From Clostridia bacterium (GTDB lineage Bacteria; Bacillota; Clostridia; Oscillospirales; Acutalibacteraceae), in assembly GCA_017436225.1 (NCBI GenBank), contig JAFSDM010000042.1, forward strand, positions 38,346-102,345: a DNA stretch of 64,000 nt. Reading direction: 5' to 3'. Shown here in pieces: positions 62,830 to 64,000 of this stretch. Made by a program: the position numbers and the translations under genes. The notes beneath the pieces were generated by a model. The model was given only the letters and a program-made list of their open reading frames with translations, searched no databases and was not told where the DNA came from. Every line of letters begins with the position of its first letter. Position 1 is the first letter of the stretch.

Positions 62830-63429
62830 TTAATTTTTCACAATCTCACGGTAGGCTTCCATAGTATCATTATGAATTGCCATACCCTTTTCGGTTAAAT
62901 CTACCACCGTAAAAATTAAGGCTTCACGCATAGCGTGCTCCAAAGAAATATCAACGGCTTTTCGCATATCATCTACACCGGGGTAATCTCTCTCCTCCGA
63001 AGTGAAATCGGCAAGATAGAGAATTTGCTCCAATAGGGACATATTAGCCTTTGCCGTTGTATGATACTGTACTGCGGAAATTATTTCTGCATCCTCAATA
63101 CCAAGCTTTTCTTTAAGATAAACCGCACCCGCTCTGGCGTGCCACAGTTTACGAGTGTTTTTTGTAACAGTATCTATCATTATACCAAAATCGTTTAATA
63201 TTTGCAACTGTGAATTTGGCTCATCATCCTTGCAAACATCGTGGAGCAGACCCGCTAAAAAGGCTTTTTTTGTATCGCAGCCGTATTTTTCGGCAAGGCG
63301 AAGCGCTTCCTTAGCGACTGCAAGAGAATGATAAAATCTTTTTGGGGTAAGTCTTTCCTTTAAAAATTTTACATAATTTTCAAACTCTATTCTATATTCA
63401 ATACCTTTACCAACAAAAATAGGTTCCAT
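62830..63429 (-). CDS. yqeK: bis(5'-nucleosyl)-tetraphosphatase (symmetrical), HD domain
   Basis: 199 aa. HSLAVA...GLLHDVCK HD motif. Conserved position downstream of nadD. Confidence 0.85.
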   Translation of the reverse strand: MEPIFVGKGIEYRIEFENYVKFLKERLTPKRFYHSLAVAKEALRLAEKYGCDTKKAFLAGLLHDVCKDDEPNSQLQILNDFGIMIDTVTKNTRKLWHARAGAVYLKEKLGIEDAEIISAVQYHTTAKANMSLLEQILYLADFTSEERDYPGVDDMRKAVDISLEHAMREALIFTVVDLTEKGMAIHNDTMEAYREIVKN

Positions 63430-63443
63430 ACTATTCTCCCCTA

Positions 63444-63713
63444 AGCAAACACGAATAATCCGAACCTGATTTTAAAGGCTCAATTTTCGTCTTTGCATTG
63501 TTAAAATACTCGTTAATCCGTCAGGATTAACTGCGTTTTGTGCCTCGCACAGCCAAAAATTGAGCTTTTAAAATTCTGTGACCTAAAACGGACAGAATTT
63601 CGAGTGATTTTTGGTGCGGAAGAATCCGTCAGGCTAACGCCTACGGGTGATGACAAACCGAAAAGTGCCGAAAGAATGCCGTTTTAGGCAGGTTCGGATT
63701 ATTCATGTTTGCT
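63444..63713. mobile_element. 270-bp MITE-like element with 25-bp terminal inverted repeats flanked by TA
   Basis: TIRs AGCAAACACGAATAATCCGAACCTG (63444-63468) and its reverse complement with one mismatch (63689-63713). TA at 63442-63443 and 63714-63715. Nested internal stems and no ORF. Confidence 0.55.
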
Positions 63714-64000
63714 TATATAATGCGTTTTCCTTTATATAATCTAAGACAAGCGGATTTAAAAATCCGCTGCAATCCTTGCCCTTTAAAAAGGCATCTCTAA
63801 CCATACTTGAGGAAATTTCGGGTGGGCAAATATCCAAAAGGGTGATTTTGCCGCCTAATTTTTCAAGTCTTTCTTTGGCTGAATATAACTGCTCATCACT
63901 TATGCCGCCACGCTTATAAACGCAAAGCTCAGCAAGGGACAAAATTTCTTCATACATATACCATTTGTGAAAATCCACAAGGCTGTCTCCGCCTATTACT
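63703..64000 (-). CDS. nadD: nicotinate-nucleotide adenylyltransferase; 5' end lies outside the window
   Basis: Frame is open to the window edge (…VIGGDSLVDFHKW…). C-terminal LDYIKENALY is typical of NadD. The last four codons and the stop lie inside the MITE-like TIR. Confidence 0.85.
   Translation of the reverse strand, partial: VIGGDSLVDFHKWYMYEEILSLAELCVYKRGGISDEQLYSAKERLEKLGGKITLLDICPPEISSSMVRDAFLKGKDCSGFLNPLVLDYIKENALYKQT

Follow-up and report, generated by a model that had tools for sequence, protein, structure and literature searches.

A 270-bp inverted-repeat element in the nadD-yqeK junction is probably one copy of an apparently undescribed MITE family of uncultured gut and rumen Oscillospirales

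The window analysed here is a stretch of 64,000 nucleotides from an Acutalibacteraceae (order Oscillospirales) metagenome-assembled genome (MAG) of 1.39 Mb in 47 contigs, which is 88% complete. Close to its end nadD and yqeK, neighbours in a conserved operon, are separated by a 270-bp segment without a conserved reading frame. All flanking genes are located on the minus strand, with yhbY upstream of nadD and the genes for an LCP protein and for RsfS downstream of yqeK; their Pfam identities are CTP_transf_like (nadD), HD (yqeK), LytR_cpsA_psr and RsfS. The question raised by this locus is whether the segment is a mobile element inserted into the operon or a structured RNA native to it, and, in the former case, what kind of element it is and how it came to lie there. 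The evidence favours, with a probability of about 0.85, one subfamily A copy of a MITE family of about 275 bp that occurs widely among uncultured Oscillospirales of gut and rumen. The features of the locus are given below, the + strand of the window being taken as the forward orientation of the element.

63442..63443, no strand: yqeK-proximal flank, the first of two copies of the target TA
63444..63468, + strand: left terminal inverted repeat, 0 mismatches to the 25-nt pattern (columns 1-29 of alignment A1)
63444..63713, + strand: element body, 270 bp, non-autonomous, subfamily A, multi-copy and without a conserved ORF
63469..63574, + strand: left arm, a long imperfect hairpin according to the predicted folds, with compensatory changes in 11 of the 16 pairs of helix 3
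63499..63547, + strand: most conserved core as judged by sequence conservation, comprising TGTTAAAAT, ACTCG, a hairpin and CTGCGTTTTGTGCCTCG
63513-63530, + strand: core hairpin with covarying stem, in which columns 78-97 and 79-96 switch between UA/CG and AU/UA
63582..63688, + strand: right arm, a long hairpin with CCTAAAACGG / CCGTTTTAGG as its closing stem (helices 6-8), G·U-rich on the + strand
63689..63713, - strand: right terminal inverted repeat, one mismatch, supplying the last three nadD codons and the TGA stop
63714..63715, no strand: nadD-proximal flank, the other copy of the target TA
63703..64000, - strand: 3' part of nadD, the gene running past the window; tail ...ALYKQT before the stop as compared with ...ALYRGE in the rebuilt empty site
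62830..63441, - strand: yqeK (HD domain), its Shine-Dalgarno sequence GGGGAG (63436-63441) intact and directly against the left end of the element

Across the element the + strand reads ...CTCCCC-TA-AGCAAACACGAATAATCCGAACCTG...CAGGTTCGGATTATTCATGTTTGCT-TA-TATAATGC.... The 25-nt repeat AGCAAACACGAATAATCCGAACCTG occurs exactly twice in the 64 kb, once on each strand, and the two occurrences match at 24 of 25 positions, while shuffled sequence yields none and gives a chance expectation of 0.00. If imperfect pairing is allowed, the complementary arms reach 38 nt at 84% identity. Within the left repeat the inner AATCCGAAC is conserved superfamily-wide and the 13 outermost nucleotides are subfamily-specific. 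The preliminary description had claimed such repeats, bounding a 270-bp segment devoid of an ORF with TA on each side and containing nested internal stems; the repeats and both TA dinucleotides are indeed in place, and every listed stem was recovered in an inverted-repeat search. The frames of 47 and 49 codons inside the element are not conserved in the 51 copies compared, among which the longest open frame differs in strand, in frame and in length (38 to 92 codons).

All 18 congeners possess a YqeK homologue, and the nadD-yqeK junction is readable in 17 of these, one congener with yqeK split over two contigs being left out of the count. The element is missing between nadD and yqeK in all 17. 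In the four closest congeners (79-81% YqeK identity) and in two more (65-68%) the two genes are separate and tightly spaced, 1-12 nt apart or, in G007, overlapping; in several more distant congeners nadD and yqeK are found in one open frame of about 400 aa. Joining the flanks of the host genome with one TA gives GCATTATATAGGGGAGAATAGTATGG, which aligns gap-free, from the end of nadD into the beginning of yqeK, to four of the six closest congeners (G009, G011, G003 and G004), and the predicted empty allele is thus GCATTATA-TA-GGGGAG. In this rebuilt junction, which reads ...ALYRGE-TAG-T-ATG, the nadD stop lies one nucleotide ahead of the yqeK ATG, just as had been reconstructed in the preliminary description. 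With zero TA, nadD would lose its conserved Leu-Tyr, and with two TAs the genes would be fused. The element was therefore inserted at a TA that is now present on both sides.

From this alignment, which is to other species with a YqeK identity of about 80%, we infer that the target TA was duplicated. TA is likewise found on both sides in 51 of the 60 delimited copies of the family, which measure 266-291 bp each. The 26-nt word of the empty site has no exact match in the metagenome contigs searched, a set possibly without near relatives of this genome. An element that itself carries one TA and inserts at a TA would give identical junctions.

At the locus itself, nadD now terminates as ...ENALYKQT, the TGA stop (63703-63705) belonging to the right repeat, and the complete protein comprises 199 aa. 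The C-terminus has therefore been rewritten by the repeat as previously proposed, the tail -KQT standing in place of the -RGE of the rebuilt junction. Among the congeners this tail reads KDE, ER or KRD or is missing altogether, and since it is not conserved the change to KQT is probably harmless. With the yqeK start at 63429, the spacing between the two genes is 273 nt as compared with 1 nt in the rebuilt junction; these coordinates, together with the predicted fold described below, bear out the structured 273-nt spacer that had been postulated.

The search for additional copies that had been suggested was successful both in the host genome and in its relatives. A profile search of the host genome returns about 34 element pieces belonging to three or four subfamilies. 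Contig ends hold 24 of these pieces, which corresponds to 24 of the 94 contig ends or about a quarter, and the repeats are thus a major cause of the fragmented assemblies in this group. Subfamily A is represented by the full copy in the window and by six others, 95-100% identical to it, four of which are partial copies at contig ends and two truncated remnants inside contigs. Subfamily B, which begins with TA-GGGTGAGCAG..., is more abundant than A, and subfamily C as well as a remnant of subfamily D are also present. Among thirteen left ends of subfamily B the median identity between pairs is 99.2%, a near-identity that, judged from the sequences, indicates a recent burst.

Outside the host genome the superfamily is found in 18 of 18 congeners and, patchily, in 5 of the 42 further genera that were sampled across the family and order. 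Scanning a genome collection for the conserved core gave at least 117 stretches, and the matches listed come from gut MAGs of goat, sheep, deer, horse, chicken and human. At 97.8% identity the window copy matches one in a congener (G001, contig C66) whose YqeK protein is only 48% identical, and at 97.1% one in an 'Oscillospiraceae bacterium' MAG (locus L174), the flanking genes of which share only about 68-70% DNA identity with those of the host genome. The exact subfamily A repeat was also encountered on ten contigs of one metagenome assembly, in contexts unlike those of the host genome, and one copy is located on an IMG/VR phage contig between the portal and prohead-protease genes. A similarity search for annotated relatives in plasmid and phage collections gave no match. 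Near-identical copies in diverged hosts and the copy on a phage imply that the element crosses species boundaries, with phages as plausible carriers.

The segment hence combines the attributes of a MITE, namely a length of 270 bp, lack of coding capacity, terminal inverted repeats, dispersed copies and TA on each side; a related autonomous element was not found. While the kind of element is known, the family itself appears to be undescribed and to have unusual habits: a search of one collection of papers with words of the core sequence returned no match, and general MITE searches gave nothing on the family.

In single-stranded form the element is predicted to adopt a Y-shaped structure, in which the two repeats form the closing stem from which two long arms extend. 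The + strand reaches a minimum free energy of -123.3 kcal/mol and the - strand one of -111.5 kcal/mol, with z about -12 relative to shuffled sequences in both cases. In order to examine the fold across the family, 51 copies from many genomes were aligned (alignment A1). The wider set of loci comprises 80 picked from the genome collection with the core pattern and a further 11 copies found by overall similarity. The termini always start with TA-R-G-S, whereas the following approximately 12 nt are almost wholly different between subfamilies (AGCAAACACGAAT, GGGTGAGCATTCA, AGCAGAGGAGGAG, GCCAAAGCATTCA), both ends altering together and matching each other in every subfamily; the inner AATCCGAAC is conserved across the family. 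The most conserved part is the core block (63499-63547), which consists of (T/C)GTTAAAATACTCG, the covarying hairpin and CTG(C/T)GTTTTGTGCC, its invariance in the 80 loci picked with the core pattern being partly by construction. The same core is carried by the 11 copies found by similarity and by the subfamilies of the host genome.

RNAalifold predicts 88 pairs for the alignment, 55 of which show compensatory double changes. Paired cells amount to 95.0%, compared with 77.9% in column shuffles and 37-52% with slid partners, and the covariation score is 0.449, compared with 0.145 for shuffles and at most 0.095 for slid partners. In the outer repeat 17 of 19 pairs covary, so that the sequence is free while pairing is kept. 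Ends that covary between subfamilies would also arise if every subfamily relied on a transposase of its own, an explanation that fits less easily with the compensatory changes in the two internal arms.

A very stable fold with z about -12, strong covariation and a location inside a conserved operon would also be anticipated for a native structured regulatory RNA of the nadD-yqeK operon, be it a leader, a riboswitch or an sRNA gene, that has never been inserted. Such an RNA would, however, have to be missing from the junction in all 17 congeners read, including the four with 79-81% YqeK identity, and to recur at dozens of unrelated loci in this genome and in others; moreover, a search of positions 63000-64000 against Rfam 15 on both strands gave no match at E up to 1. 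The preliminary description had named a single-copy segment conserved at this position in relatives, or relatives devoid of the predicted empty-site sequence, as outcomes that would speak against a mobile element. Instead, the segment is multi-copy, 17 congeners lack it, and four of them display the expected sequence without a gap. Copy number and empty sites refute the native RNA, which we consider extremely improbable.

Given a mobile element, the question of its mobilising enzyme arises. The preliminary description had linked the segment to IS630/Tc1-mariner transposons by virtue of its TA. Derivation from such a transposon, with movement by an IS630-family DDE transposase having matching terminal repeats, would agree with the TA on both sides and the single TA of the rebuilt site as well as with repeats of 25-27 nt containing a conserved inner block, as in a transposase-binding site. 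Contrary to this proposal, the Pfam family DDE_3 (IS630) was detected in 0 of 19 genomes of the genus, some of them assembled into 10-30 contigs at a completeness of 96-99%, and in 0 of 5 further element-bearing genomes, hence in 0 of 24 in all. DDE_3 does occur in 19 of 401 genomes of the order, but the 30 IS630 loci fetched from these contain neither inverted pairs of the inner repeat motif nor the element core, and the suggested check for an IS630-family transposase with matching repeats was thus negative. One weak core-like match beside an IS630 remnant (L297) was inspected and is not the element. In addition, the orientation-specific insertion described below is no trait of IS630. MAG assembly and binning often lose multi-copy insertion sequences, for which reason a transposase has to be regarded as not found rather than as absent, and this in turn leaves some room for IS630. 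Taken together, an IS630 origin appears unlikely, and the link to this group as originally drawn was not supported.

Other transposases fare no better, and none of those searched for (DDE_3, Y1_Tnp, rve, DDE_Tnp_1, DDE_Tnp_4, IS1595, IS110 and TnpB) tracks the element. Y1_Tnp is present in 4 of 18 congeners without following its distribution, which speaks against an element of the IS200/IS605 or REP/RAYT type; to our knowledge these families are devoid of long terminal inverted repeats. Within the genus, rve is found in 5 of 19 genomes and DDE_Tnp_1 in 3 of 19, and among the host genome and four high-quality congeners DDE_Tnp_4 and IS1595 are each found in 0 of 5 and IS110 in 1 of 5. For TnpB these five genomes gave only sub-threshold zinc-ribbon matches; the one in the host genome (contig C21) belongs to a 312-aa membrane protein with a zinc ribbon.

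A longer version of the element was found neither in the host genome nor among the 91 loci from relatives and the genome collection nor on the 10 metagenome contigs, and no left half parted from its right half by a gene was observed. Scanning metagenomes with the exact subfamily A repeat gave only copies of MITE size or at contig ends. In the host genome the inner repeat motif forms only one inverted pair at a spacing of 0.4-4 kb, and this falls within genes for ribosomal proteins. The genes adjoining the element in the loci examined show no recurrent family. The mobilising enzyme not having been found in these genomes, the element is an orphan like the Correia elements. An autonomous partner is likewise lacking for some accepted MITEs, the Correia elements among them.

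The position of the window copy directly against the yqeK Shine-Dalgarno sequence is not peculiar to this locus. With the end nearest the core designated as left, the flanks of the 60 delimited copies were examined. In 35 of them the left end is turned towards a gene that reads away from it, with a Shine-Dalgarno sequence and a start codon no more than 60 nt distant, whereas this applies to the right end in just 2; the start codon is mostly 10-23 nt from the left end. The right end commonly faces the 3' end of a gene whose stop codon coincides with the edge of the repeat or falls just within it; ten such stop codons are formed by the TA and the first purine of the element. The bases following the TA on the left side (A in 31 of 51, G in 24, G in 19, A in 23 and G in 19) spell TA-AGGAG, whereas the right-side flank bears almost no base signal. 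Both the window copy and the phage copy obey the rule.

In the host genome alone, a start region adjoins 12 of 17 informative left ends, compared with about 2 of 19 right ends, and this bias includes the young copies of subfamily B. By a liberal definition, TA sites beside a Shine-Dalgarno sequence make up 4.6% of the intergenic and 0.8% of all TA sites of that genome. The fixed orientation at Shine-Dalgarno sites suggests that targets are chosen directionally, that insertions are strongly filtered afterwards, or both, and its occurrence in copies that are about 99% identical argues that it arises at or soon after insertion. For copies away from start codons, orientation relative to the local gene direction was too noisy to be read with the crude ORF measure employed. 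A fixed orientation at an asymmetric site is unusual, and unexpected for a transposon with symmetric ends.

An orientation-specific terminator was considered as the cause of the bias and rejected, because a consensus scan calls the core hairpin terminator-like on both strands alike. Also rejected was an outward promoter at the left end that would drive the next gene; a candidate (TTGAGC-17-GATTAT) is seen in subfamily A and is not conserved in subfamily B.

Since the left end faces the start of the downstream gene, host mRNAs carry the reverse strand of the element, which is the less stably folding one. The forward strand, antisense to the host operon, is the more stable in 45 of 53 copies, by a mean difference of 8.45 kcal/mol. 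In the consensus structure 344 forward-strand G·U cells are opposed by 65 A·C cells, or 196 by 65 without the three invariant core pairs, and the excess is concentrated in the right arm (138 versus 19), the closing stem (38 versus 25) and the left arm (19 versus 14) showing none. The excess is to be read with the reservations that it is largely inherited from a common ancestor, so that few independent events are involved, and that the forward strand was used to predict the consensus structure, so that columns holding G·U are favoured. About half of the copies contain TGTTAAAAT, which resembles an extended -10 box on the forward strand and points to the right arm, and the rest contain CGTTAAAAT. 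No promoter was called at the core by the consensus scan; its -35 region is also poor. From the sequences, the strand asymmetry would be compatible with an RNA encoded by the element or with a relic of a promoter of the parent element.

These observations bear on the possibility that the element is more than a passive MITE and that its forward strand is functional, either as an RNA whose transcription is driven by the internal TGTTAAAAT box and extends over the right arm, or as single-stranded DNA that is recognised by its structure and inserted directionally at TA-AGGAG by machinery outside the recognised families. The greater stability of the forward strand and its G·U-rich right arm, the core with TAAAAT as the most conserved block, an outer repeat that changes in sequence while its pairing is retained, the orientation bias of 35 versus 2 and the lack of a known transposase family common to the element-bearing genomes would all be in line with a functional strand. 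On the other hand, the core lacks a called promoter and a proper -35 region, its conservation is in part a consequence of the way in which the 80 loci were picked, the G·U excess is mostly ancestral and promoted by the choice of strand for the prediction, and covarying ends would also result from subfamilies tracking their own transposases. A functional forward strand therefore seems quite doubtful to us. Still less probable, and highly speculative, is the wider proposition of a distinct kind of mobile element, whose conserved three-way-junction fold, rather than its end sequence, is recognised by the mobilising machinery, and which inserts directionally at a TA before a Shine-Dalgarno sequence by means of an enzyme outside the recognised transposase families, possibly with the participation of a forward-strand RNA that it encodes.

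Under the favoured reading as a MITE copy, the events at the junction may be pictured as follows. The element entered a TA within the last nadD codons, immediately 5' of the yqeK ribosome-binding site, and left the Shine-Dalgarno sequence and start codon of yqeK untouched. It would have been moved in trans by an enzyme that recognises the inner repeat AATCCGAAC and the TA-R-G terminus and probably the conserved fold as well. The two genes would remain co-transcribed across the element, the operon mRNA carrying its reverse strand as a Y-shaped structure, the closing stem of which may set the nadD stop region beside the yqeK Shine-Dalgarno sequence. Direct translational coupling through overlapping signals would be lost.

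In order to place the family among known elements it was compared with three others, of which the Correia elements of Neisseria appear to be the closest, RUP and ERIC also being close. Correia elements (CREE/NEMIS) possess repeats of approximately 26 nt and a TA target duplication, occur in dozens to hundreds of copies mostly beside genes, measure 100-155 bp, and are transcribed with their neighbours to fold into a hairpin in the mRNA; we know of no cognate transposase in their host genomes. Both are thus orphan MITEs that are TA-flanked, multi-copy and terminated by repeats of about 26 nt. The present family, however, is about twice as long (approximately 275 bp), has a three-way junction with two long internal arms instead of a single hairpin, contains an asymmetric and highly conserved core, and adopts one orientation at Shine-Dalgarno sites (35 versus 2); there is no sequence similarity, and its hosts are Clostridia.

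The ERIC or IRU elements of enterobacteria, about 127 bp in length, form a single hairpin, affect the flanking mRNA in an orientation-dependent manner and in some copies overlap translation signals; they occur in both orientations. Like the present family they are TA-flanked, palindromic and transcribed with adjacent genes, yet they differ in their single hairpin and in their occurrence in both orientations, the present family being found almost always in one, and they are unrelated in sequence and hosts.

RUP, the repeat unit of pneumococcus, is 107 bp long, and IS630-Spn1, a candidate partner in the same genomes, has been proposed as its mover. Both RUP and the present family are non-coding, multi-copy, intergenic MITEs of Firmicutes with TA flanks, but RUP at 107 bp has a candidate IS630 partner, whereas the genomes bearing the present family have yielded DDE_3 in 0 of 24 cases. 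Pneumococcal repeats have been reviewed (PMC3049150).

At the level of the locus, a recent insertion has rewritten three C-terminal residues of NaMN adenylyltransferase, and in a conserved housekeeping operon a 1-nt junction has been exchanged for a structured spacer of 273 nt; the locus itself is ordinary and of modest importance. The family is of wider interest. It is abundant and has recently been active in small genomes where insertion sequences are almost lacking and no known transposase was found, it spreads between distant hosts with at least one copy on a phage, and it lies in one orientation at the very point at which the next gene begins to be translated. If its placement reflects targeting, it would represent an unusual insertion specificity for a bacterial MITE and would provide a natural system for studying the tolerance of long structured inserts between coupled genes.

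In the closest relatives, nadD and yqeK, the two genes between which the subfamily-A copy of the window lies, are separate and tightly coupled. A single open frame of 367–412 aa spans both genes in more distant congeners (loci L046-L056; genomes G001, G005, G006, G010, G012, G013, G016, G017 and G018), and this frame has the appearance of a NaMN adenylyltransferase-HD phosphohydrolase fusion.

Besides the window copy, a subfamily-B element is located at the contig end, outside the window, and therefore two insertions are present in this chromosome stretch. It lies upstream of nadD along the same minus strand, and its left end, the one nearest the conserved core, adjoins the AGGAG-N7-ATG of the next minus-strand gene.

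Further family members in the assembly (G000) and in a phage
G000:C40:104503-104636, subfamily-B element at the contig end, 2.4 kb past the window end
G000:C3:50413-50669, nested elements (locus L139), downstream of glyA
L263 (IMGVR_UViG_3300018495_003546), 647-924, family member in the portal / prohead-protease gene interval

Within the head-morphogenesis operon of phage L263 a family member stands between the portal gene and the prohead-protease gene. This element supplies the last five codons and the stop codon of the portal protein, and its left end adjoins the Shine-Dalgarno sequence AGGAGG of the protease.

The outer repeat of several subfamilies is purine-rich and Shine-Dalgarno-like (GGGTGA, GAGGAGG), as seen in columns 1-16 of the alignment of 51 element copies (A1); consequently, the partner repeat resembles the anti-Shine-Dalgarno CACC(C/T).

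Examples of Shine-Dalgarno-like outer repeats
Loci L195, L210 and L038: TAAGCAGAGGAGGAG
Subfamily B: TAGGGTGAGC

Downstream of glyA, a truncated copy of the fourth subfamily (TA-GCCAAAGCACTTAAAC...) hosts a subfamily-B copy exactly at its terminal TA. This arrangement represents an end-to-end nested insertion of two elements, and the nested pair suggests that the element ends themselves are insertion targets.

Among all contigs of the assembly, 24 of the 94 contig ends terminate within an element of the family. The element repeats are a main cause of the fragmentation of this MAG, and the true copy number probably exceeds that counted in the assembly.
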